A stretch of 64,000 nt of DNA from Planctomycetota bacterium (GTDB lineage: Bacteria; Planctomycetota; B15-G4). The position numbers and the translations under genes are program-made. Shown here in pieces: positions 8,007 to 56,673 of this stretch (position 1 is the first letter of the stretch; every line of letters begins with the position of its first letter). The notes under the pieces are model-generated. The model was not told the origin of the DNA and did not search any database. It worked only from the letters and a program-made list of their open reading frames with translations. The stretch covers positions 1 through 64,000 of the forward strand of contig JBBQUR010000019.1 of the NCBI GenBank assembly GCA_038212275.1. Reading direction: 5' to 3'.

Positions 8007-9401
8007 ATGAAGACCATCGTCCTTGCCTTCTCCGGCGGACTCGACACCTCCTTCTGCGCGGTCTACCTGCGCGAGCAGACTCGTGCCGACATCGTGACGG
8101 TCTGCGTGGACACCGGCGGCTTCACGGCCGAGGGCCTCGCCGCCGTCGAGGCGCGTGCGCGCGCGCTCGGCGTGAAGGATCACCGCACCGTGGACGCGCG
8201 CGCCGACGTGTGGACTCGCTTCGTCAGCTACCTCATCAAGGGCAACGTGCTGCGCGGCGGCGTCTACCCCGTGTCGGTCGGTTGCGAGCGCACGGCGCAG
8301 GCGGAGGCCGTCGTGGCCGTGGCGCGCGAGCTGGGCGCCGACGCCGTGGCGCACGGCTCGACGGGCGCCGGCAACGACCAGGTGCGCTTCGACGTGGCCA
8401 TCGGGGCGAAGGCGCCGGGCCTCGCCATCCTCACGCCGATCCGCGACCTCAACTGGTCGCGTGTGCAGGAGGCCGAGTGGCTCGCCGAGCGCGGCATCTC
8501 CGTGCCGGCGGGCACCGTGAGCTACTCGCTCAACGAGGGCCTGTTCGGCACGACGATCGGCGGCAAGGAAACGCACGACCCGTGGAAGCTGCCGCCGGAC
8601 GCGGCCTACACGATGACCGTGCCCGCCACGCAGGCCGCTGCGGAGCCCGAAGAGCTGGTCATCGGCTTCGAACACGGCGTGCCCGTCACGCTGGACGGCC
8701 GGGCGCTCGACGGCGTGTCGCTCGTCACGGAGCTGAACCGCCGCGCGCGCCCCCACGGCGTGGGACGCGGCGTGCACGTCGGTGACACGATCCTGGGGCT
8801 CAAGGGGCGCATCGCTTTCGAGGCTCCCGCGCCGCTCATCATGATCCGCGCGCATCGCGAGCTGGCCAAACTGGTGCAGACCAGGTGGCAGGCTTACTGG
8901 GCCGAGCAGGCCGGCACCTTCTACGGCATGCTGCTGCACGAGGGCCTGTTCTACGACCCGGCGATGCGCGACCTGGAAGCGCTGCTCGACAGCGCGAACG
9001 AGCGCGTTGGCGGCGAGGTGCGCGTGCGCCTGTACCGCGGCAATCACGACGTGGTCGGCGTGCGCTCGCCGCACTCGCTGCTGAACCCCGCCATCGCGGT
9101 GTACGGCGAGGGCGCCTCGGCCTGGACCGGCGAGCAGGCGGCCGGCTTCGCGCGCATCCACGGCCTCCCGTCGATGCTCGCCGCACGCCGCGACGAACTC
9201 GCGCCCGCAACGAACGCGCCCGCAACGAACGCTCCCGCAACGAGCGCTCCCGCAACGAGCGCTCCCGCAACGAACGCGGCCGCAACGAACGCGGCCGCAA
9301 TCGGTTCGCCCGGTGCGGACGCGCAGGACGGCACCGAGAGCAAGGACAGCAAGTCGCCGGCCGGCCCGCGGGCCGCCCGGAAGGAGAGTTCAGGAACATG
9401 A
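8007..9401 (+). CDS. argG: Argininosuccinate synthase (Bacteroidetes-like subtype) with a repeat-rich C-terminal tail
   Basis: VLAFSGGLDTS, HGSTGAGNDQVRFD, GDTILGLKGRIAFEAPA. Confidence 0.96.
   Translation: MKTIVLAFSGGLDTSFCAVYLREQTRADIVTVCVDTGGFTAEGLAAVEARARALGVKDHRTVDARADVWTRFVSYLIKGNVLRGGVYPVSVGCERTAQAEAVVAVARELGADAVAHGSTGAGNDQVRFDVAIGAKAPGLAILTPIRDLNWSRVQEAEWLAERGISVPAGTVSYSLNEGLFGTTIGGKETHDPWKLPPDAAYTMTVPATQAAAEPEELVIGFEHGVPVTLDGRALDGVSLVTELNRRARPHGVGRGVHVGDTILGLKGRIAFEAPAPLIMIRAHRELAKLVQTRWQAYWAEQAGTFYGMLLHEGLFYDPAMRDLEALLDSANERVGGEVRVRLYRGNHDVVGVRSPHSLLNPAIAVYGEGASAWTGEQAAGFARIHGLPSMLAARRDELAPATNAPATNAPATSAPATSAPATNAAATNAAAIGSPGADAQDGTESKDSKSPAGPRAARKESSGT
9201..9300 (+). repeat. 15-bp in-frame tandem repeat (~6.7 copies; APATN/APATS/AAATN)
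   Basis: GC(G/T)(C/G)CCGCAACGA(A/G)C units read directly. Confidence 0.95.
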
Positions 9402-10441
9402 AGATCCGCCCGCACAAGGTCGGCAGCGTCGTGCATCGCCTCAAGCTCGGCCCCGAGCTGGACATCAGCCGCATGGTCGATGCGCGCTCGGGCCAGGTGC
9501 TCGTCGTGAGGGCGCTCGAGGAGAAGCGCGTGTACGACGTGATGGAGCTCACGACGGGGCGCATGGCGCACGTCGGCAAGGGCGACGTGATCGTCGGCGC
9601 CCTCGGCCGGCGCGACGCGCTGCGCGGCTTCGTCGGCCGCGTGCCGACGTCCGTGAAGGCGGGCGACACGCTGCACCTGCTCAACCTGGGCGGCGTCATC
9701 GGCCAGGTCATCTCGGAGAACAAGGACCTCGGGCATCCGCTGCGCGTCGAGGTGCTCGGCATGGCGCTGCGGGAGGACGGCAAGGGCATGAACATCGCGG
9801 ACGCGGCGCTCGGCGAGCCGCCGGCCGCCGCGCGCACGCCGCCGGTGATCCTCGTCTCCGGAACCTGCATGAATGCGGGCAAGACGCTTGCGGCGTGCGA
9901 GATCATCGCGCGGCTTACGGAGCGCGGCTACGTCTGCGGCGGCGCCAAGCTCACCGGCGTCGCGGCGCAGCGCGACACGCTCAACATGGCCGACCACGGC
10001 GCGGTGCACACGCTGTCCTTCGTGGACCTCGGCCTGCCCAGCACCGCGGGCATGACCGAGATGGCGCCCATCGCCAAGCGCCTGCTGCGCTGGGTGGAGA
10101 CCGAGGCCGGCCAGGAGCTGGACGTCGTCGTGGCCGAGGCCGGCGACGGCATCATCGGTGCGTACGGCGTCGAGTCCATCCTCAACGACCCGGAGTTCAT
10201 GGAGCTCGTGCAGGCGCACGTGCTCTGCGCGAACGACCTCGTCGCGGCGTGGGGCGGCATGAACTGGCTGCGCGAGCGCGGCATCGAAGTGGACTGCATC
10301 GCCGGCCCGGCCACGGACAACGACGTGGGCATGGACTACATCCGCAACAGCCTCGGCCTGCCCGCGTCCAATGCGCGCACCGAGCCCGACAAGCTGGCGG
10401 ACATCGTGGAGAAGGCCGCCTTCGAGGGCGTGCTCACGTGA
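9398..10441 (+). CDS. DUF1611/DgcN-like P-loop-fold protein; candidate glutamate N-acyltransferase replacing ArgA
   Basis: ATGA overlap with argG; GALGRRDALRGF, VSGTCMNAGKT (P-loop-like), GAKLTG, DLGLPST, VAEAGDGI motifs. Confidence 0.7.
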   Translation: MKIRPHKVGSVVHRLKLGPELDISRMVDARSGQVLVVRALEEKRVYDVMELTTGRMAHVGKGDVIVGALGRRDALRGFVGRVPTSVKAGDTLHLLNLGGVIGQVISENKDLGHPLRVEVLGMALREDGKGMNIADAALGEPPAAARTPPVILVSGTCMNAGKTLAACEIIARLTERGYVCGGAKLTGVAAQRDTLNMADHGAVHTLSFVDLGLPSTAGMTEMAPIAKRLLRWVETEAGQELDVVVAEAGDGIIGAYGVESILNDPEFMELVQAHVLCANDLVAAWGGMNWLRERGIEVDCIAGPATDNDVGMDYIRNSLGLPASNARTEPDKLADIVEKAAFEGVLT

Positions 10442-11627: not shown

Positions 11628-12982
11628 CGGATTCCGCAGACGGGAGCGAGGCCGCTCCGGCGGACTCCGCAAGGAAGGGGAAGGCCATGACGGCAGGTCC
11701 GGAAAGTTCGAGGACGGGAGGCAAGACGGCAGCATCCACAGCGAGCACGTCGAGCACGGCGAGTGCGGCGAGCACCGCCGGCGCAGTCGCCGGGAGCATC
11801 GCGTCGCACTGCGCCGGGAGCAGTGCGGAGGTCGCGGCCATCGAGGACCGCTGGCAGCTCCCGACCTACGCCAAGATGCCGATCGCACTCGTGCGCGGCG
11901 AAGGCAGTTACGTGTGGGATGCCGAGGGGCGCCGCTACCTCGACCTTTATGGCGGTCATTGCGTGGCGCTTGCGGGGCACTGCCACCCACGGCTCGTGTC
12001 CGCGATCCGCGAGCAGGCCGGCCGCCTGCTCTTCTACAGCAATGTCGTGTACAGCGACGTGCGTGCGCTGGCCGCCGAGCGTGTCGCCGGGCTGGCGCCC
12101 GCCGGGCTGCAGAAGGTCTTCTTCTGCAACAGCGGCACGGAGGCCAACGAGACCGCGCTGAAGCTTGCGCGCAAGCACACGGGCCGCAAGCACGTGATCT
12201 CCATGGCCGACGGCTTCCACGGCCGCACGCTCGGTTCGCTCGGCGCGACGGGCCTGTCCAAGTATCGCGACCCGCTCTATCCCGTCCCCGTGGAGCACAC
12301 CTACGTGCCCTACGGCGATCTCGACGCGCTCGCTGCCACGATGGACAAGGACATCGCCGCCGTGATGCTCGAGGCGATCCCGTCCATGGGCGGTATCCGC
12401 GTCGCGTCCGACAACTACTACCAGGGCATGCGCCGCCTCTGCGACCGGCACGGCGCGCTGCTCATCTTCGACGAGGTGCAGAGCGGTTTCGGCCGGACCG
12501 GCACGCTGTTCTTCGGCGAGCAGGTGGGCGTGCGGCCCGACCTCATCACCGGCGCGAAGGGCGTCGCGGGCGGCGTGCCGGCGGGCGTCGTCTTCGTGCG
12601 CGAGGACATCGCGGCGCGCGTGCAGCACGGCGACCAGGGCACGACCTTCGGCGGCGGACCGCTGGCCTCCGTCGCGATGGCGACCGTCGCCGACATCATC
12701 CGCGACGAGCGCCTGCCGCAGAACGCGGCGGCCACCGGCGCCTTCCTCGCGGAGCACGCCGGCGCGATCCGCGGCGTGCGCTCCGTGACGGGCCGCGGCC
12801 TGCTGCTCGGCATCAATCTCGACTGCCCCGCGAAGGACGTCGTCACCGGGTTGCGCGGCCACGGCATCCTGGCCGGCACCTGCGAGGGCGACAAGAACCA
12901 GATCCGCCTGCTGCCGCCGCTGACGCTCGCTCCCGGGGAACTGGGCCCGTTCTTCACCGCGCTGGCGACCCTGCTGGCATGA
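11624..12982 (+). CDS. argD: N-acyl-ornithine aminotransferase (class III PLP)
   Basis: YLDLYGGH, FFCNSGTEANE, FHGRTLG, IFDEVQSGFGRTG, GAKG, GTTFGGGPLA; GTG11624 or ATG11687 start. Confidence 0.92.
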   Translation: MTDSADGSEAAPADSARKGKAMTAGPESSRTGGKTAASTASTSSTASAASTAGAVAGSIASHCAGSSAEVAAIEDRWQLPTYAKMPIALVRGEGSYVWDAEGRRYLDLYGGHCVALAGHCHPRLVSAIREQAGRLLFYSNVVYSDVRALAAERVAGLAPAGLQKVFFCNSGTEANETALKLARKHTGRKHVISMADGFHGRTLGSLGATGLSKYRDPLYPVPVEHTYVPYGDLDALAATMDKDIAAVMLEAIPSMGGIRVASDNYYQGMRRLCDRHGALLIFDEVQSGFGRTGTLFFGEQVGVRPDLITGAKGVAGGVPAGVVFVREDIAARVQHGDQGTTFGGGPLASVAMATVADIIRDERLPQNAAATGAFLAEHAGAIRGVRSVTGRGLLLGINLDCPAKDVVTGLRGHGILAGTCEGDKNQIRLLPPLTLAPGELGPFFTALATLLA

Positions 12983-14088
12983 CGGCCGCCCCGGCAAGCG
13001 ATCGCGCCGCTGCGCCGCGACACCTGCTGTCGCTGCGCGACCTGCCGCAAGCCGACTGGGACGAACTGCTCGCCAGCGCCGAGCGGCTCGCCGGCCCGGC
13101 CGGGCGCCGGCCCCTGATCGCAGGGCGCCGCCTCGGCATGCTCTTCTTCAATGCATCGCTGCGCACGCGCACTTCCTTCGAGGTGGCGTGCTTCGACCTC
13201 GGTGCGCATGCCGTGTCGCTGCAGGTCGGCGGCAACGTGTGGAAGCTCGAGTCGCGCGACGGCGTGCGCATGGACGGCGAGGCCGCCGAGCACGTCAAGG
13301 AAGGCATCCCCGTGCTCGGACGCCTGCTCGACGGACTGGGCGTGCGCTGCTTCGCGGGGCTGACCGACGCTGCGGACGACGCGCGCGACCCGCTGCTCTC
13401 CGCGATCGCCGCCGTGTCCACTGTGCCCGTGCTCAACCTCGAATCCGCGATGGATCATCCGCACCAGGGCCTGGCCGATGCGCTGGCGCTGCGCCGGCAC
13501 CTGCGGGGCGAGTCGCCCGTGAGCGTCGCGCCCCGCAGCGCGGCGTCGAGCGGCGGGCCGCGCGGCTCCGACGCCGGGCGGCCCGCGCCGCGCGCGCGCG
13601 TCGTCCTGTCGTGGGCGCCGCATATCAAGCCGCTGCCGCTCGCCGTGCCGCACGCGGCGCTGATGGCCTTCGCGCGCGAGGGCCACGACATCGCGCTCTG
13701 CCATCCGCCGGGCTTCGACCTCGATGCGGGCGTGCTGACCGCGGCGCGCGCAGCCGCCGCCGCCACGGGCGGTTCGCTCTCCGTCGGCAACGACCGCCAC
13801 GGGGCGCTCGACGGCGCGCAGGTCGTGTACGTCAAGTCGTGGGGGGCGCGCGCGCACTACGGCGATGCCGCCGCGGCGGCGTCCGCCTTCGCCACGCACC
13901 GCGACTGGATGCTGACCGGCGCCGATCTCGGACTGGCGGCGTTCATGCACTGCCTGCCCGTGCGGCGCGGGGTCGTGGTCGCCGACGAGGTGCTCGACGG
14001 CGGCCGCTCGCTGGTGCTCGAACAGGCCGGCGCGCGCCTGGACGTTCAGAAAGCGACACTGTGTCGCGCCTTCGGAGTCCCCGCGTGA
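12979..14088 (+). CDS. argF: N-acyl-ornithine carbamoyltransferase (ArgF', AOTCase/SOTCase family; succinyl-type residue)
   Basis: FNASLRTRTSFE, WKLESRDGVRMDGEAAEH, HPHQGLAD, WAPHIKPLP, YVKSW, FMHCLPVRR signatures. Confidence 0.9.
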   Translation: MTAAPASDRAAAPRHLLSLRDLPQADWDELLASAERLAGPAGRRPLIAGRRLGMLFFNASLRTRTSFEVACFDLGAHAVSLQVGGNVWKLESRDGVRMDGEAAEHVKEGIPVLGRLLDGLGVRCFAGLTDAADDARDPLLSAIAAVSTVPVLNLESAMDHPHQGLADALALRRHLRGESPVSVAPRSAASSGGPRGSDAGRPAPRARVVLSWAPHIKPLPLAVPHAALMAFAREGHDIALCHPPGFDLDAGVLTAARAAAAATGGSLSVGNDRHGALDGAQVVYVKSWGARAHYGDAAAAASAFATHRDWMLTGADLGLAAFMHCLPVRRGVVVADEVLDGGRSLVLEQAGARLDVQKATLCRAFGVPA

Positions 14089-15127: not shown

Positions 15128-16347
15128 GCGAGGTCATCGATCTGCTGCGCGAGCTGGTGGCGCTGCCCTCCGTGTCGGGCGACGAGGCCGCCTGCCGCGA
15201 CCTGCTCATCCGCTGGTTCGAGGCGCGAGGCGTGGAGGTGCGCGCGCACGGCCGCAACGTCATCGCGGTGGTGGAGGGCACGGCGGCTGCGAATCGCGCG
15301 GCGGGCGCGACCTCCGCGGCCGACGCGCGCGGCGGCGAGACGCGCGGCGGCGAGACGCGCGGCGGCGACGCGCATGGCGGCGAGGCGCCCGCTGACGCGC
15401 CGAACACCGGCGACCGCGGTCTGCTGCTCTGCTCGCACACGGACGTCGTGCCGGTCGGTCCCGGCTGGACGCGCGACCCGTGGGATGCGGCGCTGCACGC
15501 CGGCCGCATCTGGGGCCGCGGCAGCAACGATGCGAAGTCGAGCGTGGCGGCGATGGCCGTCGTCGCGGCCTCCGTCGATCCTGCGCGCCTGCACGGCCGC
15601 CTCGTGCTGGCGCTGGTCTGCGACGAGGAGACCGGCGGCGAGGGCATCGAGTCCTGCGGTAAGGACCTGCCCGCGTGCACGGCCGCAGTGGTGGGCGAGC
15701 CCACGGGGCTCGACGCATGCCCCGGCCAGCGCGGCCTGCTGCGCGCCGCCGTCGTCGTGCGCGGGCGGAGCTGCCACGCCAGCCGCCCGCACGAAGGCAT
15801 CAACGCGCTGGAGCTGGCCGCGCACGACGTGCTCGCCATTCAGGGCCTGAAGTTCCCCGAGGAGCACCCGCTGCTCGGCCGCGCGACGCTGCAGGCCACG
15901 GTCATCAACGGCGGCACGCGCCCCAACGTGATCCCCGGCGAGTGCACCATTCTCACCGACGGCCGCCCGACGCCCGCCTACGACAACGGCCGCATGCTGG
16001 CGATGCTGCGCGAGGCGGTGCGCGGTGAGGTCACGGTGAAGAGCGAGCGTTTCCGCCCCGTGGTCACGTCGCCCGAAGAGGAAATCGTCGCGCTCGCGCG
16101 CGCCGCGAGTCCGACGGGCTTGGTGCGCGGCTTCGGCGGCGTGTCGGACCTCTATCACCTGCGCCACCTGCCCGGTGTCGTCATGGGCCCCGGCACGAGC
16201 GCCGCGAGCCATGCGCCGGACGAGTGGGTGGCGATCGAGCAAGTGGAAGCGGCGGTCATTGCCTACGCCAGCATCGTCGAAGGCTATCTCGGCGCGGGTC
16301 GCAGCTCCGTCGTCCCGCTGCCTCGCGCGCAGCCCACGCCCCGATGA
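15124..16347 (+). CDS. argE: M20 family deacylase (N-acyl-citrulline/ornithine deacylase)
   Basis: SHTDVVP, GRGSNDAK, DEETGG, VGEPT, SHAPDEWV; located in the arg operon. Confidence 0.85.
   Translation: MSEVIDLLRELVALPSVSGDEAACRDLLIRWFEARGVEVRAHGRNVIAVVEGTAAANRAAGATSAADARGGETRGGETRGGDAHGGEAPADAPNTGDRGLLLCSHTDVVPVGPGWTRDPWDAALHAGRIWGRGSNDAKSSVAAMAVVAASVDPARLHGRLVLALVCDEETGGEGIESCGKDLPACTAAVVGEPTGLDACPGQRGLLRAAVVVRGRSCHASRPHEGINALELAAHDVLAIQGLKFPEEHPLLGRATLQATVINGGTRPNVIPGECTILTDGRPTPAYDNGRMLAMLREAVRGEVTVKSERFRPVVTSPEEEIVALARAASPTGLVRGFGGVSDLYHLRHLPGVVMGPGTSAASHAPDEWVAIEQVEAAVIAYASIVEGYLGAGRSSVVPLPRAQPTPR
15322..15387 (+). repeat. 15-bp in-frame tandem repeat (DARGG/ETRGG/ETRGG/DAHGG) in an argE loop
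   Basis: GA(C/G)(G/A)CGC(GC/AT)GGCGGC x4. Confidence 0.9.
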
Positions 16348-47402: not shown

Positions 47403-49961
47403 TCAGCTCCTGCGCGGCCGCGGCTTGACCGCGAGGTACTGGTCCGGCCACGGCTGGCTGTCCACGCCGTACTGCGCGGCGGCATCGAGCGTGAGATACG
47501 GATGCGAGAGGTGCGCGCGGGCAATCGCGCAAAGGTCCGCGCGGCCGGCGGCGAGCACAGTGTTCGCATGGTCCGCGCCCTGGATCGCGCCGACGGCCAT
47601 CACCGCGAGGCCCGGCACTTCGTGGCGGATCCGGTCCGCGAACGGCACCTGGTACATGCGGCCGTACTCGATGACGCTTTCGGGCGAGTTGCCGCCCGAC
47701 GAGACGTCGATGAGGTCGCAGCCGTGCTCGTGCAGCGCGCGCGCGATCACGACCGCGTCGTCGGCGGTGAGGCCCACGTCGTGGCCGGCCTTGTCCTTCC
47801 AGTCCGAGGCCGAGATGCGCACGGCCAGCGGCTTGTCGGCGGGCCACGCGGCGCGCACCGCGTCGAAGACCTCGAGCGGGAAGCGCAGGCGCTTGTCGAG
47901 GCTGCCGCCGTAGTCGTCGGTGCGCCTGTTGCTCGCGGGCGAGAGGAAGCTCGAGAGCAGGTAGCCGTGCGCCATGTGCAGCTCGATGAGATCGAAGCCC
48001 GCGGCCAGCGAGAGGCGCGTGCTGGCGACGAAGCCGTCGCGCACGCGGTCCATGTCGGCGCGATTCATTTCCTGCGGCGGCGGATCGCCCGGCTCGAACG
48101 GCAGCGCCGACGGGCCGATGGTCTGCCACGCGCGGCTGTCGCGCAGGGGCGCACCGCCCTCCCAGCTGAGGTGGCAGCTGCCCTTGCGGCCCGCGTGCGC
48201 GAGTTGCACGCCGATGCGACTGGCCGAGTGCTCGTGCACGAAGGCCGTGATGCGAGCCCAGGCTGCGCGCTGCTCCTCGTTCCACAGGCCCGCGCAGCCG
48301 GGCGAGATGCGCCCGTCGGCGGAGATGTTGGTCATCTCCGAGATGACGAGGCCTGCGCCGCCCACGGCGCGACTGCCGAGGTGCACCAGGTGCCAGTCGG
48401 TCGGCACGCCCTGCACGGCCGAATACTGGCACATCGGCGAGACGACGATGCGATTGCCGAGCGCCAGGCCGCGCAGCCGGAAGGGCGCGAACATCGGCGG
48501 CGGCACCGGGCCGTCGGCAGCCGGCGCCGTCGGCACCCGCAACGCCGCAGCGGCGCGCACCGTGGCGTGGCCGGAGTCCGAGCCGCCCGCGGTGGCAGCG
48601 GGCGCCGGTGCGAAGCGCTGCGCGTCCTTCCAGAACCAGTTCGCGACCGCGGCGACGAGCGCCGGGTCCCGCAGCGCAAGATTGTCGAAGGTGATGCGCT
48701 TGCTGCGCGTCATGAGGTTGAAGGTGAATTGCAGTGGGTTCTGATCGATGTAGCGCGCGGAGTTCTCGAACCACTCGAGCGAGGTCTGCGCGGCCTTCTG
48801 CACCTTCAGCACGTCGAGCCGGCGCGCGCTCTCGTACGCGGCGAGGATCTCCGGCACGTCGGCCGCCGCGGGCGCCGCGAACTGCGCGGACGCAGCCGCC
48901 GTGCCCGGCGCACCCGGCGCACACGCGGCAAGCGGCGCGCCGCCCGCGCCAGCAGCACCAGCTGCGCCAGCTGCGCCAGTTGCGCCAGTTGCACCAGCAG
49001 CACCAGCAGCGCCAGCAGCGCCAGCAGGACTGCCCCCACCGACGGCGCCACCCGCGCCGGCATGCCCGCGGAAGGCGTCGAGCAGCGCGATCGCGTCTTC
49101 CATCGCGAGCTTGGTGCCCGAGCCGATGGAGAAGTGGGCGGTGTGCGCCGCGTCGCCCACGAGCACCATGTTGCGGTGGTGCCAGGTGGCGTTGGTGACC
49201 GTGGGGAAGGCGCGCCAGATCGAGCGGTTGGCGAGCAGCTTGTGGCCGCCGAGGTCCTGCGCGAAGAGCCGTTCGCAATAGGCGATCGTCTCGGCTTCGC
49301 TGGCGGCATCGAGGCCTGCGCGCCGCCAGGTGTCCTCATGGCATTCGACGATGAAGGTGCTGAGGTCCTTCTGGAAAGGATAGGCGTGCACCTGGAAGAG
49401 CCCGTGCTCGCTCTCCCGGAAGATGAAGGTGAAAGCCGAGAGCGGCTTGTCCGTGCCCAGCCAGCAGAAGCGCGCGCTGCGCCAGTCGATCGTCGGGCGG
49501 AAATGCTCGACGAACTCGGTGCGCAGCAGACTGTTGAGGCCGTCGGCTGCGAGCACGAGGTCGGCGCCCGCCACGTCGGACGCGCTGCGGATCTCGCGCT
49601 GGAAGTGCAGTCGGACGCCCAGGTCCGTGCAGCGCTTCTGGAAGATCTGCAGCAGCTTCTTGCGCGACAGGCCGCAGAAGCCGTGGCCGGTGGAGCGCAC
49701 GCAGGTGCCGCCGTACCAGGTCTCGATGTCGCCCCACGTGGCGAGGTGACGGCGGATCTCGGCGAAGCTCTCCGGATCGGCGCGCTCGAAGTTCCCCAGC
49801 GTCTCGTCGCTGAACACGACGCCCCAGCCGAAGGTGTCGTCCGGCGCGTTGCGCTCGAAGACGTCGATCTCGACGCCGGGAAAGGCCTGCTTCATGAGCA
49901 GACTGAAGTAGAGGCCGGAGGGGCCGCCGCCGGCGGACACGATGGAAAAGGGCTTGGTCAC
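47403..49961 (-). CDS. Bifunctional salicylyl-CoA 5-hydroxylase / anthraniloyl-CoA monooxygenase-reductase (FAD monooxygenase + OYE domain)
   Basis: [41 protein letters not shown]; then [30 protein letters not shown]. Confidence 0.9.
48946..49027. repeat. 9-bp in-frame tandem repeat (AGA/TGA tripeptides) inserted in the monooxygenase
   Basis: GC(G/A)CCAG(C/T)(A/T) units, ~9 copies. Confidence 0.85.
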
Positions 49962-50121
49962 GGCGGCAGATGTTACCCAAGGCACGCGCGGATCCCGTCG
50001 CGACTCCGCCGCCGCGCCGCCCTGCTGTCCCGCTGCCGCCGTGCCGATGTCCGCGCGGCGGCATTCCCCCCGGCGGAAAGTCAGGTGCGCCCGGGCGCGG
50101 CCGGGGGAATAATGTGGCTCC

Positions 50122-51621
50122 ATGGAATTCCAGCAGTTCTATCTCGGGTGTCTTGCGCAGGGCAGCTACCTCGTGGGCGACAAGCCCGACACTGTGGCGA
50201 GCCCCGCGAGCCCCGCGAGCCCCGCGAGCCCTGCGAGTGCCACGAGTGCCACGAGTGCCGCGAGTGCCGCCGGCGCTCACGGCGCCGCGATGGGTGAGTG
50301 TGCGATCGTCGATCCGCGCCGCGACGTGGACCTCTACATCGAGGCCGCGGCGGCCCGCGGGCTGGTCATCACGCACATCATCGAGACGCACCTGCACGCG
50401 GACTTCGTCTCGGGCCACGTGGAATTGGCGCGGCGCACCGGCGCGACGATCCACATCGGCCACCGCGCCGGCGCGTCGTTCCCGCACGTGCCGGCGCATG
50501 ACGGCGACGAAATCGTGCTCGGCCGCGTCGTGCTTCGCTTCCTGATGACGCCGGGGCACACGCCCGAAAGCCTCTGCGTGCTCGTGCTCGAGGGCGGCGC
50601 GCCCGTCGCGGTGCTCACGGGGGACACGCTCTTCATCGGCGACGTCGGCAGGCCCGACCTGGTGTCGAGCAAGGGCTTCTCGGCGCAGCAGATGGCCGGG
50701 ATGCTCTACGACTCGCTGCGCGACAAGCTGGCGCCGCTGCCGGACGACGTCCTCGTGTACCCGGCGCACGGCGCGGGTTCCGCGTGCGGCAAGAACATCA
50801 GCAAGGCGCTCTCGTCCACGCTGGGCGAGCAGAAGGCGCTGAACTGGGCGCTGCAGCCGATGACGCGCGAGGCCTTCATCGAGCGCTCGACGGCCGGCCT
50901 CCCGCCCTCGCCGCCGTACTTCGCGCATGACGCGGAGCAGAATCGTGCCGGCGCGACGCCGCTGTCGGACCTGGTTGCACCGCCGCCGCTGTCGCCGGAG
51001 GCCGTGCAGCGCGCGCAGGCAGCCGGCGCCTTCGTGCTGGACGTGCGCGAGAAGGAGGCCTACGGCGCGGGCCACGTGCCGGGCTCGCTGAACATCGGAC
51101 TCACCGGCTCCTTCGCGCCGTGGGCCGGAACGCTGCTGCCGCTCGATGCGCCGCTCATCCTGGTGGCGGACGGTGCCGGGGCCGTCGCCGAGGCGCGGAT
51201 GCGGCTTGCGCGGGTCGGCCTGTCGGACGTGGCCGGCTTCCTCGACGGCGGCGTGACGGCGTGGTCCTCGGCGCAGCGGCCGCTCACGGCACTGCCGCAG
51301 CTCCCGGTGGAAGCGCTGCGCGCTCGCCTCGCGGGAGACCGCGCATTGCTCGTGCTGGACGTGCGCGGCCCGGGCGAACACGAGGCGGGCCATGTGCCCG
51401 GCGCACTCAACATCCCGCTCCCGCAACTCCGGGAGCGACTCGCGGAGCTGGACCGATCGCGCCCGACGGCCGTCGTCTGCCAGAGCGCCTACCGCAGCAG
51501 CGCCGCGTGCGGCTTGCTGGAACGCGCCGGCTTCCGCAAGCTGTACAACGTGGCCGGCGGGACGCAGGCCTGGATCGCCGCGGGCTTTGAAACGGGCCGG
51601 GTGGAAACCGCATCAAGCTGA
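50122..51621 (+). CDS. MBL-fold persulfide dioxygenase-like protein fused to two rhodanese domains
   Basis: ETHLHADFVSG, TPGHTPE, GDTLFIGDVGRPDL, PAHGAGSACG; rhodanese GHVPG twice and CQSAYRS. Confidence 0.9.
   Translation: MEFQQFYLGCLAQGSYLVGDKPDTVASPASPASPASPASATSATSAASAAGAHGAAMGECAIVDPRRDVDLYIEAAAARGLVITHIIETHLHADFVSGHVELARRTGATIHIGHRAGASFPHVPAHDGDEIVLGRVVLRFLMTPGHTPESLCVLVLEGGAPVAVLTGDTLFIGDVGRPDLVSSKGFSAQQMAGMLYDSLRDKLAPLPDDVLVYPAHGAGSACGKNISKALSSTLGEQKALNWALQPMTREAFIERSTAGLPPSPPYFAHDAEQNRAGATPLSDLVAPPPLSPEAVQRAQAAGAFVLDVREKEAYGAGHVPGSLNIGLTGSFAPWAGTLLPLDAPLILVADGAGAVAEARMRLARVGLSDVAGFLDGGVTAWSSAQRPLTALPQLPVEALRARLAGDRALLVLDVRGPGEHEAGHVPGALNIPLPQLRERLAELDRSRPTAVVCQSAYRSSAACGLLERAGFRKLYNVAGGTQAWIAAGFETGRVETASS
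50197..50268 (+). repeat. 9-bp in-frame tandem repeat (ASP/TSA/ASA x8)
   Basis: GCGAGCCCC grading into ACGAGTGCC. Confidence 0.9.
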
Positions 51622-51702
51622 GTCGAGGCCGAGTTGCGTTCGCCGCGTCGTGCTCGACGGAGCGCGGGCCACGGACCGCAGACCCCAGGGAGAGCACACC
51701 GC

Positions 51703-52473
51703 GTGACACGGTCGTCGGACGGGCTCGCGGACATCCGCCACGAGACGGGGCGCTACAGCGTGCGGATCGCGCGGAACGATCGCGATGTGCGCCGAGCGCA
51801 GGAGCTCCGCTTCGAGGTCTTCAACCGCGAGCTGAACGAGGGCCTCGCCGTGTCCTGGGAGAAGGGCTACGACGAGGATGTCTTCGACGCCCCCTGCGAC
51901 CACCTGCTCGTGGAGCACATGGATACCGGCGCGTGCGTCGGGACTTATCGCGTGCAGGCCACGCGCCGCGTCGTCGACCCGCCGGGCCTGTACACGGCCG
52001 GTGAGTTCGACCTGTCCAGCCTTGCCCCGCTGGTTCCGCAAGCCGTCGAGACGGGCCGCGCGTGCATCCACAAGGACCACCGCAACACGCGCGTGCTGCA
52101 GCTCCTGTGGATGGGCCTCGGCAGCTACATGCTCGCCAACGAGGCGCGCTACCTGTTCGGCTGCTGCTCGCTGACCTCGCAGGATCCCGAGGAGGGCAAG
52201 GCCGCGTGGCGCTACCTGCGCGACGAAGGCCACCTGCACCCGACGCTGGTCGCGCCGCCGCGCGCGGAGTATCTGTGCTTTCCGGCGGGCGCGGCGGCCG
52301 CTCCGGGGCCCGTCGCGCGCGGCGTGCCGCCGCTCTTCGCGTCGTATCTGCGCATCGGCACCAGGGTCGTGGGCGAGCCGGCGCTCGACCGGCACTTCAA
52401 GACCATCGACTTCCTCGCGCTGCTCGACCTCGCGGATCTCACCGAGGTGAATCGCAAGCGCTTTCTGCGTTGA
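51703..52473 (+). CDS. olsB: GNAT N-acyltransferase, OlsB-like (ornithine/amino-lipid N-acyltransferase)
   Basis: AQELRFEVF, DVFDAPCDHL, VGTYR, ETGRACIHKDHR, YLFGCCS, PPLFASYLRIG, PALDRHFKTID. Confidence 0.75.
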   Translation: MTRSSDGLADIRHETGRYSVRIARNDRDVRRAQELRFEVFNRELNEGLAVSWEKGYDEDVFDAPCDHLLVEHMDTGACVGTYRVQATRRVVDPPGLYTAGEFDLSSLAPLVPQAVETGRACIHKDHRNTRVLQLLWMGLGSYMLANEARYLFGCCSLTSQDPEEGKAAWRYLRDEGHLHPTLVAPPRAEYLCFPAGAAAAPGPVARGVPPLFASYLRIGTRVVGEPALDRHFKTIDFLALLDLADLTEVNRKRFLR

Positions 52474-53303
52474 GCGGCCGGACGGGCGGATCGAGCGCGC
52501 CGCTGCGCGCCGGCACGCGCCTCGTGCTCGTGGTGCTGGCGTCGGTGGCGTTGGGTCTGCCCCTCGCGCCGCTGCGGCTCCTGGGGCTGCCGTTCGGGCG
52601 CCGTGGCCACGCGTTTTCACTGCGCAGCTGCCTGCGCGTGCAGCAAGCGTGGGGCCGGACCGTGCTGGCGATCATGGGCGTGACCGTGACGCGCCCGGCA
52701 GGCGCGCCGCCGCCGGGGTGCGTGATCGTCAGCAACCACCTCAGCTATCTCGACATCCCGCTCATCGCGAGCATCGTGCCCTGCCGCTTCGTGTCCAAGG
52801 CGGAGGTCGCCCACTGGCCGCTGATGGGGCTGCTGGCCCGGCTCGCGTACGTGCTCTTCCTGGACCGAGGCCACAAGGGTGCCGTACCCGCCATAGGGCG
52901 CGACATTGCCGCGACGCTGGACCAAGGCGTCACCGTGACCTTTTTCCCGGAGGGCACCTCGACGCGCGGCGCGCAGGTGGAGCACTTTCACGCGGGCCTG
53001 CTCGAGCCGGCCGCTGCGCTGGACATTCCCTGCGTGGCCGTCGCGCTGCACTACGACACGCCGGGTGACATCGAGCCGCCGTCGTGCACAATCTGCTGGT
53101 GGGGCGACACGACCTTCGGCCCGCACGCCTGGAACCTGATGAAGATCCACCGCATCGAAGCCACCGTCCGCTGGTCCGATGTGCCGCTGCGCGGGGCCGA
53201 CCGCAAGCTGCTGGCCAACGGCCTGCACGCGCAGGTGGCGGCGATGTTCGTGCCGGTGCGCCAGGCGGCCGATGTCTCCCGGGAGCTGGCTGCCGCGCCA
53301 TGA
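52470..53303 (+). CDS. olsA: PlsC-family O-acyltransferase, OlsA-like
   Basis: NHLSYLD (HX4D), FVSKAEV..WP, FFPEGTST; TTG start overlaps the olsB stop. Confidence 0.72.
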   Translation: MSGRTGGSSAPLRAGTRLVLVVLASVALGLPLAPLRLLGLPFGRRGHAFSLRSCLRVQQAWGRTVLAIMGVTVTRPAGAPPPGCVIVSNHLSYLDIPLIASIVPCRFVSKAEVAHWPLMGLLARLAYVLFLDRGHKGAVPAIGRDIAATLDQGVTVTFFPEGTSTRGAQVEHFHAGLLEPAAALDIPCVAVALHYDTPGDIEPPSCTICWWGDTTFGPHAWNLMKIHRIEATVRWSDVPLRGADRKLLANGLHAQVAAMFVPVRQAADVSRELAAAP

Positions 53304-53848
53304 ACACGAGCTCGAACGTCGACCCGATCGGCCCCAATATCGAGGTCCTGCAGCAGACGCTGTGGCTCCTCGAGGAGCTCGACGACAACCAGTACATCCA
53401 CGTGGAAGCGCGGCTCTCGTCCGCGTCCATCGGTGCGCATGTGCGTCACAACCTCGATCATTACAGGCTCTTCCTCGCAGGCCTGCCGTCGCGGCTCATC
53501 GACTACGACGCGCGCGACCGTGACACGCCGGTGGAGACCAACCGCAGCGCGGCGGCGGCCGCCGTGCGCAGCGCCATCGCGGGACTGTCCGCGCTGTCGC
53601 GCGAGTCGCTCGCCCAGGCCGTGCGCATCCGCCAGCAGGGCAGTTACGAGCCCGGGCGCTTCGACGGCTGCGAGAGTCGCGTGGATCGCGAGCTGCTCTT
53701 CCTGCAGAGCCATGCCGTGCACCATCACGCGCTCATCGCGGTGCTCGCCCGCGCGCAGGGCCTGCCGATTCCCGAGAGCTTCGGCATGGCGCCTTCCACC
53801 CTCGAGTGGTTGCAGCGGCACGCGACGCTGCCCGCCGCGCGGAGCTGA
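53300..53848 (+). CDS. DinB/YfiT-like four-helix protein
   Basis: SIGAHVRHNLDHY, IDYDARDRD, RELLFLQSHAVHHHA, FGMAPST; ATGA overlap. Confidence 0.82.
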   Translation: MNTSSNVDPIGPNIEVLQQTLWLLEELDDNQYIHVEARLSSASIGAHVRHNLDHYRLFLAGLPSRLIDYDARDRDTPVETNRSAAAAAVRSAIAGLSALSRESLAQAVRIRQQGSYEPGRFDGCESRVDRELLFLQSHAVHHHALIAVLARAQGLPIPESFGMAPSTLEWLQRHATLPAARS

Positions 53849-53855
53849 GCACCGC

Positions 53856-54689
53856 GTGTGCACGCTGACGTTCGTGCCGGGCCTGCCGCTCGGCGGTTTC
53901 CTGCTGGCGCACAATCGCGATGAGTCGCTCCGGCGCGGGCCCGGCCTGCCTCCGGTGATCGGGCAGCTCGGCGCCGCACGGATCATGGCGCCGCGCGACA
54001 CCGATGCGGGCGGCACCTGGCTCGGCGTGGACAGCCGCGGCCGCTGCCTCGCCATCCTCAACGGCGACCGTCCGTCCGTGACGCCGACGCCCGCCGACGC
54101 CCGCAGTCGCGGACTGCTCGTCATGGACCTGCTCGCCGACGCGCGGCCCGCCGCGGTGCGCGCGCGCCTGGAACGCCAGGTCGCCGAAGGCTCGCTGCGC
54201 AGCAGGTCCTTCAAGCTCGTGGTCGTGGAGAGCGGCGATGGCCCGGGTGCCGAGGCGCCGCAGGCTCGGCTCCTGCGCATCGACTGGGACGGACTGCAAC
54301 TTGCCTTCACGGAGCTTTCCGGTCCGCAGTGCATCGTGTCGAGCACCTACGCGTCGGACGCCGTGGAGAGCGCACGACGCGCCGCCTTCGCGCGGCTCCT
54401 CGACACGCTGCCGCTCGAGGCGGGCGCGCCTCGCGGGTCGGAGTCTCGAAGTCGCGTGGACGACCCGGCAGTCGTCGCGGCCGCGCTGCGGGCCTTTCAC
54501 GCGGGACACGCGCCGTCCGCGCCGCAGGGTGATGCCTTCTCGGTGTGCATGCACCGCCCCGATGCGCGCACGGTGAGCCGCACGCTGCTGATCGTCGGCC
54601 CGCGCGAGATCCGCATGGAGTACACGGCCGGCTGGCCTTGCGCCGGCGCCGAGGCCGTCGTCACGAGCATGGAGCGTCGACCCGGATAG
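53856..54689 (+). CDS. NRDE/TANGO2 family protein (Ntn-hydrolase-like)
   Basis: M-C-T-L start, NRDE, D..AGGTWLG, LNG, SRGLL, CMH, RTVS. Confidence 0.88.
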   Translation: MCTLTFVPGLPLGGFLLAHNRDESLRRGPGLPPVIGQLGAARIMAPRDTDAGGTWLGVDSRGRCLAILNGDRPSVTPTPADARSRGLLVMDLLADARPAAVRARLERQVAEGSLRSRSFKLVVVESGDGPGAEAPQARLLRIDWDGLQLAFTELSGPQCIVSSTYASDAVESARRAAFARLLDTLPLEAGAPRGSESRSRVDDPAVVAAALRAFHAGHAPSAPQGDAFSVCMHRPDARTVSRTLLIVGPREIRMEYTAGWPCAGAEAVVTSMERRPG

Positions 54690-54821
54690 CCGCCTGTCGG
54701 ACGCGGCACGTGCCCGGCGCGACGCGACAGGTGCGAGGCAGCACAGATGGCGCGGTGCTCGGCCGGCACCGTGATGCGGGGCCGGGGCGATGTCGCACGC
54801 GCTCTGCGCTACCATCGCGTC

Positions 54822-55967
54822 GTGACGGACGATGTCGTGACACTCACCGAGCAGCTCGTGGCGCGGGACAGCGCACCGGGCCGCAGCACGGAGCCCGCGG
54901 TTGCGCTGCTCGCGGAGCGGCTTGCGGCCGCCGGTGCGCGCGTCACGCTGCAGGACGGTACGCACGGTGGCGTGACGCAGCGCAATCTCGTGGCGCGCTT
55001 CGGCGGCGCCGGCCCCGCGGGCCTGGTGCTCGCCGGACACATCGACACCGTGCCATGGCAGGTCGGCAATCGCGCGACCTCGACGCCCGAGCGCGACGGC
55101 CGCACGCTCTTCGGCCGCGGCGCCTGCGACATGAAGGGCCCCATCGCCGCGCAGGTGCTCGCCGCGGAGCGCGCGCTGCGTGGCGCGGTGTTGCGGCGGC
55201 CGCTTGTCCTGCTCTACAGCTATGCGGAGGAAATCGGCTGCCACGGGGCGCTCGCGCTCGTCAGCCGACCGGAACTTCTGGGCGATGTCGCCGGCGCGGC
55301 GTGCCTCGTCGGCGAGCCGACCGGGCTCGTGCCGATCGTTGCGCACAAGGGCTACGCGGTGGCCACGCTGACGCTGCGCGGTCGGCCCGCGCACAGCAGC
55401 AACCCCTGGGCGGGCGCGGACGCGTCCGTCGCGCTGGGCGTGCTGCTGCCGGGTCTGCACGCGCTGCGCGAGGAACTGCGGCGTGAAGGCGACCCGCGTT
55501 GCGGCCTCACGCCGCCGTGCACCACGCTCAACACGGGCATGATCTCCGCCGGCACCGCGGCCAATGTCGTACCCGACCGCGCCGAGGTGCGCCTCGAGTG
55601 GCGCCCGCTGCCCGGCTTCGACGGCGACGCGCTGCGCGCTCGCGTGGCGGCACTGCTCGAACGCGCGTGCCAGGCTGCGCCCGGCGTGCACGGCGAACTG
55701 CACTGGCCCGCGCCGCTGCCGCCTTTTCGCCAGCCCCGGGAGCATCCGCTGGTGAGCTGGCTCGCGGGACGCGCCGGCCACGCGCCTGGCAGCGTGGCTT
55801 TCTACACGGAGGCCGAGCTCTATCGCGCGGCGTTCTCGCTGCCGACGGTCGTGTGCGGCCCGGGCTCCATCGACCAGGCGCACCGCGTGGACGAGTCCAT
55901 CCTGTTCGATGAGCTGGAAGCCGGGCTGGCGCTCTACGGAGATGCCGTCGCGGAGTTCTGCGGCTGA
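54822..55967 (+). CDS. argE: Second acetylornithine deacetylase (M20, E. coli ArgE-like)
   Basis: GLVLAGHIDTVP, GRGACDMKG, EEIGCHGA, GEPT..P..AHKG, HSS, FYTEA, GPGSIDQAH..DE. Confidence 0.82.
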   Translation: MTDDVVTLTEQLVARDSAPGRSTEPAVALLAERLAAAGARVTLQDGTHGGVTQRNLVARFGGAGPAGLVLAGHIDTVPWQVGNRATSTPERDGRTLFGRGACDMKGPIAAQVLAAERALRGAVLRRPLVLLYSYAEEIGCHGALALVSRPELLGDVAGAACLVGEPTGLVPIVAHKGYAVATLTLRGRPAHSSNPWAGADASVALGVLLPGLHALREELRREGDPRCGLTPPCTTLNTGMISAGTAANVVPDRAEVRLEWRPLPGFDGDALRARVAALLERACQAAPGVHGELHWPAPLPPFRQPREHPLVSWLAGRAGHAPGSVAFYTEAELYRAAFSLPTVVCGPGSIDQAHRVDESILFDELEAGLALYGDAVAEFCG

Positions 55968-55992
55968 GTCCGGCCGGGTCGGATCCGTGCGC

Positions 55993-56673
55993 TCATGCTT
56001 CCGGTCGGCCCACGATCACCGTCGGCCGCATGCCGAGGAAGAGGCCCGTCTCCACGATGCCCGGATGGAGCTTGAGGCGTCGCGCCACCTCGTCCGGCGC
56101 GGCAATGCCGCCGTCGAAGCGGACGTCGATGATCCAGTGGCCTTCGTCCGTGACGAGCGGGGCCCCGCTCGTCGTGACGCGCAGCAGCGGGCGCCCGCCG
56201 AGTTCCGCAAAGAGCGCGTCGTGACTGCGGTGCCCGAAAGGCACGACCTCGACCGGCAGCGGTGCGCGCGTGCCGAGCCGCTCCACGAGCTTCGACGCGT
56301 CGACGACGATGGCCAGGTGCCGCGACGCCGTGGCGACGATCTTCTCGCGCAACAGCGCTGCGCCGAGTCCCTTGATCAGGTTGCCCTCGGGGTCGACCTC
56401 GTCGGCGCCGTCGATGCTGAGGTCGAGGACGGGGCGCGAGTCCAGGTCGGTGACCGGCACTCCGGCGCGCACGGCCCGTTCGTGCGTGGCTCGCGAGGTG
56501 GGCACGCCGACGATGTCGGAGAGCCGCCCGTCGCGCAGGCGCCGGCCGAGTTCATCGACGACGAGCACCGCCGTCGACCCGCTGCCCAGCCCGAGCACCA
56601 TGCCGGAGACGACGAGGTCCACGGCCTGCAACGCAGCTCGCTGCTTGGCATCGTTCTGGCGATCGGCGTTCAT
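55993..56673 (-). CDS. rpiA: Ribose-5-phosphate isomerase A
   Basis: GLGSGST, IDGADEVD, IKGLGAALLREKIV, PVEVVP, PGIVETGLF. Confidence 0.96.
   Translation of the reverse strand: MNADRQNDAKQRAALQAVDLVVSGMVLGLGSGSTAVLVVDELGRRLRDGRLSDIVGVPTSRATHERAVRAGVPVTDLDSRPVLDLSIDGADEVDPEGNLIKGLGAALLREKIVATASRHLAIVVDASKLVERLGTRAPLPVEVVPFGHRSHDALFAELGGRPLLRVTTSGAPLVTDEGHWIIDVRFDGGIAAPDEVARRLKLHPGIVETGLFLGMRPTVIVGRPEA

Follow-up and report, generated by a model that had tools for sequence, protein, structure and literature searches.

Ornithine lipids are made by several described routes, and the two-step OlsB/OlsA pathway of the Sinorhizobium meliloti type is one of the closest counterparts of the locus considered here, a run of four genes (olsB-olsA-dinB-NRDE) within a 64,000-nucleotide (nt) stretch of planctomycete DNA (contig JBBQUR010000019.1 of assembly GCA_038212275.1, positions 1 to 64,000), referred to below as the window. 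As in that pathway, the gene for a PF13444 N-acyltransferase overlaps the next gene, which encodes a PF01553 O-acyltransferase with the HX4D motif, and the best NCBIfam models for the two window proteins are the OlsB and OlsA equivalogs. The window differs in that its scores reach only about a third of the equivalog level (134/350 and 110/300 bits) and in that it adds two coupled genes, one for a DinB-fold protein and one for a member of the NRDE/TANGO2 family, to which relatives add a Ferric_reduct::Rieske gene, a gene for an uncharacterised protein of ~255 amino acids (aa) and a hydrolase::VTT::ATP-grasp-like gene. The alternative OlsF and OlsH/OlsI pathways lead to the same product class, and many PF13444 matches of this phylum lie in OlsF-like frames of 590–720 aa; unlike them, the window has the split OlsB plus OlsA form, with no GH3 enzyme involved. 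The OlsH/OlsI route has been described in planctomycetes, according to the available part of the source (PMC12493201).

In humans, TANGO2 deficiency leads to severe metabolic disease, and what the TANGO2 protein does is disputed. The accessible portions of two papers place it variously as a haem carrier, an acyl-CoA binder and a hydrolase with an N-terminal cysteine nucleophile (Cys-Ntn) (PMC13044924, PMC11867700). The TANGO2 structure paper, as far as its available text goes, proposes a Cys-Ntn hydrolase of fatty-acid derivatives, does not identify the substrate and contains no operon or neighbourhood analysis (PMC13044924), while the available part of the other paper reports that human TANGO2 binds C16/C18 acyl-coenzyme A (acyl-CoA) via its NRDE motif (PMC11867700). 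A term search of the accessible text of a 2026 aminolipid review gave no mention of DinB, TANGO2, NRDE, DedA or Rieske, and no paper that links NRDE/TANGO2 to OlsB, ornithine lipid or DinB was found in a search that covered few subscription journals; papers naming both TANGO2 and ornithine were, among the matches listed, clinical or human-genetics papers by title.

The olsB-olsA-dinB-NRDE locus

We consider it probable that the olsB-, olsA- and dinB-like genes and the NRDE gene form a co-transcribed operon whose products make an acyloxyacyl amino-acid lipid and tailor it, or turn it over. The gene layout supports the existence of one tightly coupled unit. Because the G+C content of the window is ~72%, open frames alone are uninformative, and genes were called from a frame plot of third-position GC (GC3) with inspection of start codons, together with Pfam and NCBIfam profile scans. 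The genes of the locus and the one that follows it on the same strand are:

51703 (GTG)..52473, + strand: olsB-like amino-acid N-acyltransferase, 256 aa (PF13444; best NCBIfam model OlsB)
52470 (TTG)..53303, + strand: olsA-like lyso-lipid O-acyltransferase of the PlsC type, 277 aa (PF01553; best NCBIfam model OlsA)
53300 (ATG)..53848, + strand: DinB-fold protein, 182 aa (DinB_2, PF12867)
53856 (GTG)..54689, + strand: member of the NRDE/TANGO2 family, 277 aa, putative enzyme with an N-terminal Cys nucleophile (PF05742)
54747, 54774 or 54822..55967, + strand: ArgE-like M20 deacylase, here called ArgE2 (Peptidase_M20 and M20_dimer; TIGR01892)

The olsB start codon is preceded by GGGAGAG, the olsB/olsA and olsA/dinB junctions are 4-nt overlaps (TTGA and ATGA, respectively), and dinB is separated from NRDE by a 7-nt spacer that carries GGAG and leads to a GTG start followed by a Cys codon. 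GC3 plot, start codons and Pfam matches confirm the arrangement proposed in the initial annotation of this DNA, in which OlsB-like, OlsA-like, DinB and NRDE genes overlap or abut and are followed by an ArgE-like gene. The gap from the NRDE stop codon to ArgE2 amounts to 57–132 nt, depending on the choice of ArgE2 start, and ArgE2 orthologues align from 54822. A scan of positions 51300–56200 found no terminators, and a sigma-70 scan of the same interval, which covers one promoter type, returned a single site, at 53065; none lies near 54810, where argE2 had been thought to possess a promoter of its own. A look for RNA data sets holding this DNA listed none.

The OlsB-like protein matches PF13444 (Acetyltransf_5) with 93.7 bits against a cut-off of 22.4, over profile positions 1–101 of 102. 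Its scores on the NCBIfam models NF052554 (134.1 bits, cut-off 350) and NF052555 (124.6 bits, cut-off 320) do not reach the equivalog level, and those on the GlsB (22.8 bits) and OlsF (70.7 bits) models lean towards OlsB without fixing the amino acid. The OlsA-like protein matches PF01553 with 73.9 bits (cut-off 23), contains the sequence NHLSYLD, which is the HX4D motif, and scores 109.6 bits on NF052553 and 104.3 bits on NF052552, both below the equivalog cut-off of 300. The names OlsB, OlsA and ArgE, assigned from profile matches, are family-level labels and no proof of substrate. If these proteins act as their families do, the OlsB-like enzyme would N-acylate an amino acid, probably ornithine, with a 3-hydroxyacyl chain, and the OlsA-like enzyme would esterify a second acyl chain.

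The NRDE and DinB-fold proteins

The NRDE protein matches PF05742 with 54.9 bits (cut-off 22.6), although only over profile positions 1–127 of 257, the N-terminal half. Its N-terminus reads M-C-T-L...H-N-R-D-E, and in an alignment of 36 sequences M1, C2, R21, D22, E23 and eleven further positions are invariant, while N20 is conserved in at least 90%. In each of the 36 NRDE homologues from the DinB loci surveyed below, a start codon with a Cys codon right behind it lies within the search range of the start-picking rule that was applied, although in L111 the start so chosen was internal. The structure model (predicted local distance difference test score, pLDDT, 93.2) has human TANGO2 (8sv7 and 9bwa; E 3.6e-11, template modelling (TM) score 0.61–0.63) as its top Foldseek match and the bacterial structural-genomics protein 3gvz as its second; these are followed by acyl-CoA:isopenicillin-N acyltransferase (2x1d; query TM score (TMq) 0.64, root-mean-square deviation (rmsd) 4.1), bile-salt hydrolases and penicillin V acylases. 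The proposal that NRDE adopts an Ntn-hydrolase-like fold with an N-terminal Cys is borne out by the invariant C2, the model and these matches. No fused forms were found at E≤1e-10 in a search for longer proteins, and the best 120 of 394 NRDE-like matches are all stand-alone proteins of 228–303 aa.

Human TANGO2 resembles the window protein in having a Cys next to the initiator Met and the N-R-D-E motif, and besides the structural match the two sequences match weakly over residues 15–95 (E 0.0018). The two nevertheless differ in that their identity is 17–18%, that the Pfam model spans only the N-terminal half and that the bacterial gene stands in an operon with lipid acyltransferases. The invariant R174 of NRDE is a candidate counterpart of Asn157/Lys166 of TANGO2.

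Cys-Ntn acyl-amide enzymes make or break amides of acyl groups with amines or amino acids, which is the bond type present in aminolipids. NRDE belongs to the same fold class as 2x1d, the bile-salt hydrolases and the penicillin V acylases and, like them, has an N-terminal Cys as its putative nucleophile; it differs from them in that it is only 8–15% identical and in that it would need no propeptide cut, the Cys presumably being bared by removal of the initiator Met. The same Cys-Ntn enzymes are those with which TANGO2 is compared in the available text of its structure paper (PMC13044924). In the NRDE tree, a Comamonadaceae metagenome-assembled genome (L172), in which DinB is followed by a eukaryote-like NRDE (LVLAANRDEFYQR), forms a very long branch.

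The DinB protein matches DinB_2 (PF12867) with 27.1 bits against a cut-off of 24.8, and its model (pLDDT 88.5) is a four-helix bundle. By sequence, nothing in the PDB lay below E 0.46; by structure, the Foldseek matches are the YfiT/YjoA-type putative metallohydrolases 3gor, 3dka and 1rxq (TMq 0.58–0.62) and also MST and BstA. A search of a protein atlas with the DinB and ~255-aa proteins returned only unnamed or DinB-named clusters. With the DinB/YfiT-like metalloenzymes and thiol S-transferases (1rxq, 3dka, 3gor, MST 8f5v, BstA 5wk0) the window protein shares the four-helix-bundle fold, a conserved His in helix 1 and HxxHH in the last long helix. Residues H50, H138, H141, H142, D53, D68, R72, R74, D75, E79, R130 and E131 are invariant among 13 sequences, and the window subfamily is set apart from the characterized enzymes by having D68, R72, R74, D75, E79, R130 and E131 as invariant residues of its own and by occurring almost only beside aminolipid-type genes (77/80 loci).

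Linkage, fold and conserved residues together suggest that DinB, with its predicted three-His site, and NRDE may act as a pair on the lipid. Our committed guess is that NRDE, with Cys2 as its nucleophile, would be an amidase or transacylase whose target is an amide bond of the lipid. The bond attacked could be the N-acyl amide of the aminolipid or lyso-aminolipid, or else an amide in the head group that the VTT::ATP-grasp-like partner, encoded on another contig in this genome, would form. DinB, for its part, may bind and modify the charged head group at its predicted metal site.

Linkage among relatives and across phyla

The association of these genes was quantified with a DinB-subfamily profile, run against a single genome of each species, which gave 122 confirmed loci, 80 of them kept. 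Partner genes were sought in the 80 loci with hidden Markov models (HMMs) built from relatives of the window, with which detection of distant OlsA proteins is probably incomplete. At least one partner (OlsB, OlsA, NRDE or the VTT::ATP-grasp-like protein) was present in 77 loci and none in 3; OlsB was found in 54, OlsA in 36 and the hydrolase/VTT/ATP-grasp-like gene in 54. NRDE was present in 36; it immediately follows DinB in 34 and immediately precedes it in 1, and these 35 DinB-adjacent NRDE loci come from Planctomycetota, Verrucomicrobiota, Chloroflexota, Gemmatimonadota, Acidobacteriota and Pseudomonadota (phyla as given in the sequence records). The window, with dinB and then NRDE on the same strand after a 7-nt spacer, has the order of those 34 loci. 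The pair is also kept where the block is rearranged, as in dinB-NRDE-olsB-olsA (Arenicella-type), dinB-NRDE-VTT-olsB-olsA (L158) and olsB-olsA-NRDE-dinB (L136). In a sample of 301 genomes of the phylum, PF05742 occurs once per genome, in 80 of them, and for a once-per-genome family present in about a quarter of genomes the DinB/NRDE linkage pattern is far from chance. Of the idea that DinB, NRDE and argE2 are all tied to olsBA, the part concerning DinB and NRDE is upheld by these counts, and the dinB-NRDE-olsBA neighbourhood recurs; the part concerning argE2 is not, as described below.

We refer to the family of the window genome (G000) as f1, to a second family of its order as f2, to a sister family as f4 and to a third planctomycete family as f9. 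Two f1 genomes, G001 and G004, whose OlsB-like orthologues are 73% identical to the window protein, have the complete order of the window, which includes an upstream gene for a metallo-beta-lactamase (MBL)-fold protein with rhodanese domains. In f2, three genomes (G023, G029 and G032) have the order olsB-olsA-dinB-NRDE and three more (G016, G038 and G039) a partial copy of it; in the f9 genome G269 the full order is found with a VTT::ATP-grasp-like gene behind it. G000, G001 and G004 form a trio (support 100) in a quick OlsB tree, away from the other 11 f1 OlsB proteins (98) and nearer L150 (94), which makes horizontal acquisition of the olsB-olsA-dinB cassette a candidate explanation; an approximately unbiased (AU) test did not reject a single f1 OlsB clade (p 0.413). 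In f1, olsB-olsA-dinB may have been beside NRDE ancestrally or may have rejoined it later.

The VTT(DedA)::ATP-grasp-like gene is absent from the window. The copy in G000 lies at C25:54105-55757 (L179), encodes 603 aa and heads a run of ABC-ABC2-PDZ-FG-GAP genes; its ATP-grasp label comes from weak matches only (RimK, E 0.0072; cyanophycin synthase, E 0.098). The same genome has, at C2:51382-52455 (L180), a Ferric_reduct::Rieske gene followed by a gene for a ~255-aa uncharacterised protein.

The fullest form of the cluster, seen in relatives and other phyla (L053, L057, L074, L104, L109, L117, L121, L127, L133, L142 and others), consists of Ferric_reduct-TM::Rieske, the ~255-aa gene, olsB, olsA, optionally dinB and NRDE, and alpha/beta-hydrolase::VTT::ATP-grasp-like; the Rieske and ~255-aa genes accompany olsBA also where DinB is absent. 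In Arenicella-type gammaproteobacteria (L126, L128, L131, L132, L134, L140, L141, L145, L151, L154, L166 and L173, where L128 is the record of a named Arenicella sp. strain) the order dinB-NRDE-olsB-olsA reverses the two blocks relative to the planctomycete form.

The genes on the upstream side of the locus are:

50122..51621, + strand: MBL-fold protein with two rhodanese domains (Pfam Lactamase_B and 2x Rhodanese)
47403..50138, - strand: large flavoprotein, divergent from the MBL-rhodanese gene (salicylyl-CoA 5-hydroxylase/oxidoreductase model)

The flavoprotein scores 1058.7 bits on the model for the bifunctional salicylyl-CoA 5-hydroxylase/oxidoreductase, just under the cut-off of 1078. Between the MBL-rhodanese protein, of the sulfur-transfer/dioxygenase type, and the Cys-nucleophile NRDE a functional tie is possible.

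Competing explanations and the place of ArgE2

Several observations weigh against a lipid operon. The scores of the OlsB- and OlsA-like proteins stay well under the NCBIfam equivalog level and so do not fix the head group of the lipid. Of the 80 DinB loci, 44 lack NRDE, which is therefore either dispensable for the module or encoded elsewhere, and 8 of the 80 loci come from genomes that also fed the HMMs. PF05742 and PF13444 occur together in 23 genomes of the 301-genome sample, yet within 3 kb of each other in only 6, plus G023 by protein search. Twelve of the 14 f1 relatives that possess NRDE have no olsBA-dinB near it: five of them carry olsB-olsA together with dinB at another place, six carry olsB-olsA at another place but without dinB, and in one genome, which is 87% complete, no olsB was found. 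The window NRDE, moreover, belongs to a clade of f1 and f4 proteins (11 rows, support 100/99) that is distinct from 25 DinB-coupled NRDEs of other phyla and f2, and f4 keeps this clade in 7 of 8 genomes although neither OlsB (0/8), DinB (0/8) nor PF13444 (0/5) was found there, and GH3 in only 1/5. Since f4 has NRDE without OlsB, DinB and PF13444, the clade cannot depend strictly on an OlsB-made lipid; either the f1 and f4 proteins have a broader substrate (an acyl donor or another acyl amide) or the protein is used differently in f4. Such facts would fit an NRDE that is unrelated to the aminolipid, an order-level housekeeping enzyme for acyl thioesters or acyl amides, or an acyl-CoA binder as human TANGO2 appears to be from the available text (PMC11867700), that is anchored to the MBL-rhodanese gene and next to which olsB-olsA-dinB landed in one sub-lineage. 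Indeed, every one of the 14 f1 relatives with NRDE has the MBL-rhodanese gene upstream of it, directly adjacent in the 12 that lack olsBA there and separated from it by olsB-olsA-dinB in the other 2. We regard this explanation as unlikely, because a random landing would hardly reproduce the closely spaced dinB-NRDE order that 34 of the 80 loci, spread over six phyla, display; G001 and G004 have preserved the arrangement, and Cys2 and the R-D-E motif are common to the window NRDE and the DinB-coupled clade.

A different role for NRDE within the same gene set would be to act on the acyl donor, taking an acyl group from acyl-CoA or acyl carrier protein (acyl-ACP) onto Cys2 and passing it to OlsB, OlsA or a lipid amine, or hydrolysing it as proofreading, with DinB as a thiol-dependent helper. 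The persistence of NRDE in f4 without OlsB would be explained in this way, the best Foldseek match of known function is an acyl-CoA-dependent acyltransferase (2x1d), and MST and BstA, both thiol S-transferases, are among the characterized enzymes with a DinB fold; the acyl-CoA binding reported for TANGO2 in the available text (PMC11867700) points in the same direction. Against it, the cluster has no conserved gene related to CoA or ACP, Foldseek cannot tell a hydrolase from a transferase, and the other structural neighbours, the bile-salt hydrolases and penicillin V acylases, cleave amides. We hold an acyl-donor role to be distinctly improbable, and prefer the amide bond of the lipid as the target.

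The initial annotation had taken ArgE2 as a fifth member of the unit, which would deacetylate N-acetylornithine and so feed OlsB, given that an arginine pathway of the ArgF' type bypasses free ornithine. The genes that bear on this are, besides ArgE2:

9398..10441, + strand: 347-aa gene between argG and argC (strong coding GC3)
12979..14088, + strand: ArgF', N-acetylornithine carbamoyltransferase (NF003384)
15130..16347, + strand: ArgE1, ArgE/DapE-family deacylase inside the arg cluster, between argB and argH (TIGR01910, TIGR01892)

The ArgF' pathway ~40 kb upstream is real: ArgF' scores 336.9 bits on NF003384, above the cut-off of 288, in a cluster of the order argG, 347-aa gene, argC, argD, ArgF', argB, ArgE1, argH, in which the 347-aa gene has no NCBIfam match at E≤1e-6. 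The genome, 91% complete, yielded no ArgJ and no ornithine carbamoyltransferase above cut-off. ArgE2 carries the M20 catalytic and dimerisation domains expected of ArgE and of the ArgF'-pathway deacetylase, which acts on acetylcitrulline (Peptidase_M20 85.9 bits, M20_dimer 66.2 bits), and it is nearer to canonical ArgE (TIGR01892, 271 bits) than is ArgE1 (TIGR01910, 163.1 bits, and TIGR01892, 158.3 bits, both below cut-off). Its description as an E. coli-type ArgE holds insofar as it is an M20 gene with TIGR01892 as its best model, but its score is under the equivalog cut-off of 297.7, and that on PRK05111 (200.5 bits) is under the cut-off of 460. Free ornithine, furthermore, has other possible sources, because the genome contains two arginase-family genes in addition to ArgE1.

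A dedicated supply of ornithine by ArgE2 is made very unlikely by synteny, in spite of the shared strand and the short gap (~130 nt) that separates it from NRDE. Orthologues of ArgE2 with 58–69% identity occur in 13 of 15 f1 relatives, and in none of these 13 loci is OlsB, OlsA, DinB or NRDE found within 1.5-kb flanks; purL instead lies on the far side in 12 of them, as in the window, where rpiA and purL follow ArgE2 on the opposite strand. Conversely, ArgE2 is in the flanks of none of 29 NRDE loci of relatives, and on one 5.29-Mb contig of G014 distances of more than 0.9 Mb separate ArgE2, olsB and NRDE from one another. Outside f1 the only match is a weak one (42% identity) among the 11 f2 genomes, with none in f3–f5, so that f2 genomes with olsB-olsA-dinB-NRDE occur without ArgE2. 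In contrast to ArgE and the ArgF'-pathway deacetylase, ArgE2 is linked neither to the arg cluster nor to olsBA in relatives, and it was rejected as a member of the unit on these grounds.

An assembly chimera at the NRDE/argE2 junction was also considered and is ruled out by a contig of 214 nt from a second sample (run X2), which bridges positions 54631–54844 with 0 differences; a 7441-nt contig from run X1, which may be the source, covers the whole junction. The junction thus exists, but it is a rearrangement breakpoint, because the block that accompanies NRDE in relatives sits on contig C25 in G000, behind the VTT::ATP-grasp-like gene, and the ArgE2 orthologues are elsewhere. In f1 that block consists of an FG-GAP gene that converges on NRDE (downstream in 7 of 10 loci scanned) and a PDZ and ATP-binding cassette (ABC) block next to NRDE in 13 of 14 loci. 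Judging from this synteny, ArgE2 is a chance neighbour, apparently brought to the locus by rearrangement. In a record from another study (run X3, record 22), a contig ~95% alike fits positions 54401–54700, to 11 nt past the NRDE stop codon, and is then unlike the window for 111 nt, which hints weakly that another gene may follow NRDE in a close relative.

With ArgE2 shown to be a mere neighbour, a misleading pathway model is removed, and the position of a TANGO2-family gene packed behind two lipid acyltransferases and DinB names candidate substrates for the family, namely lyso-aminolipid, aminolipid and acyl donors. We put forward only tentatively, as a possibility that we think a good deal more likely to be wrong than right, the broader proposal that bacterial NRDE/TANGO2 proteins are Cys-Ntn amidases or transacylases of N-acyl amino-acid (acyloxyacyl) membrane lipids, acting with a dedicated DinB-fold metalloprotein, that human TANGO2 would by descent act on an N-acyl-amide or acyl-thioester lipid and not only as a passive carrier of acyl-CoA or haem, and that in this planctomycete lineage a resident, order-specific NRDE fills the slot that the cassette-type NRDE has in other phyla. 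If this is true, the order-specific and cassette-type NRDE clades would be functionally interchangeable. The bacterial operon offers a cheap system for testing substrates of the TANGO2 family, and it points to an undescribed step in the tailoring or turnover of ornithine-type lipids in at least six phyla.

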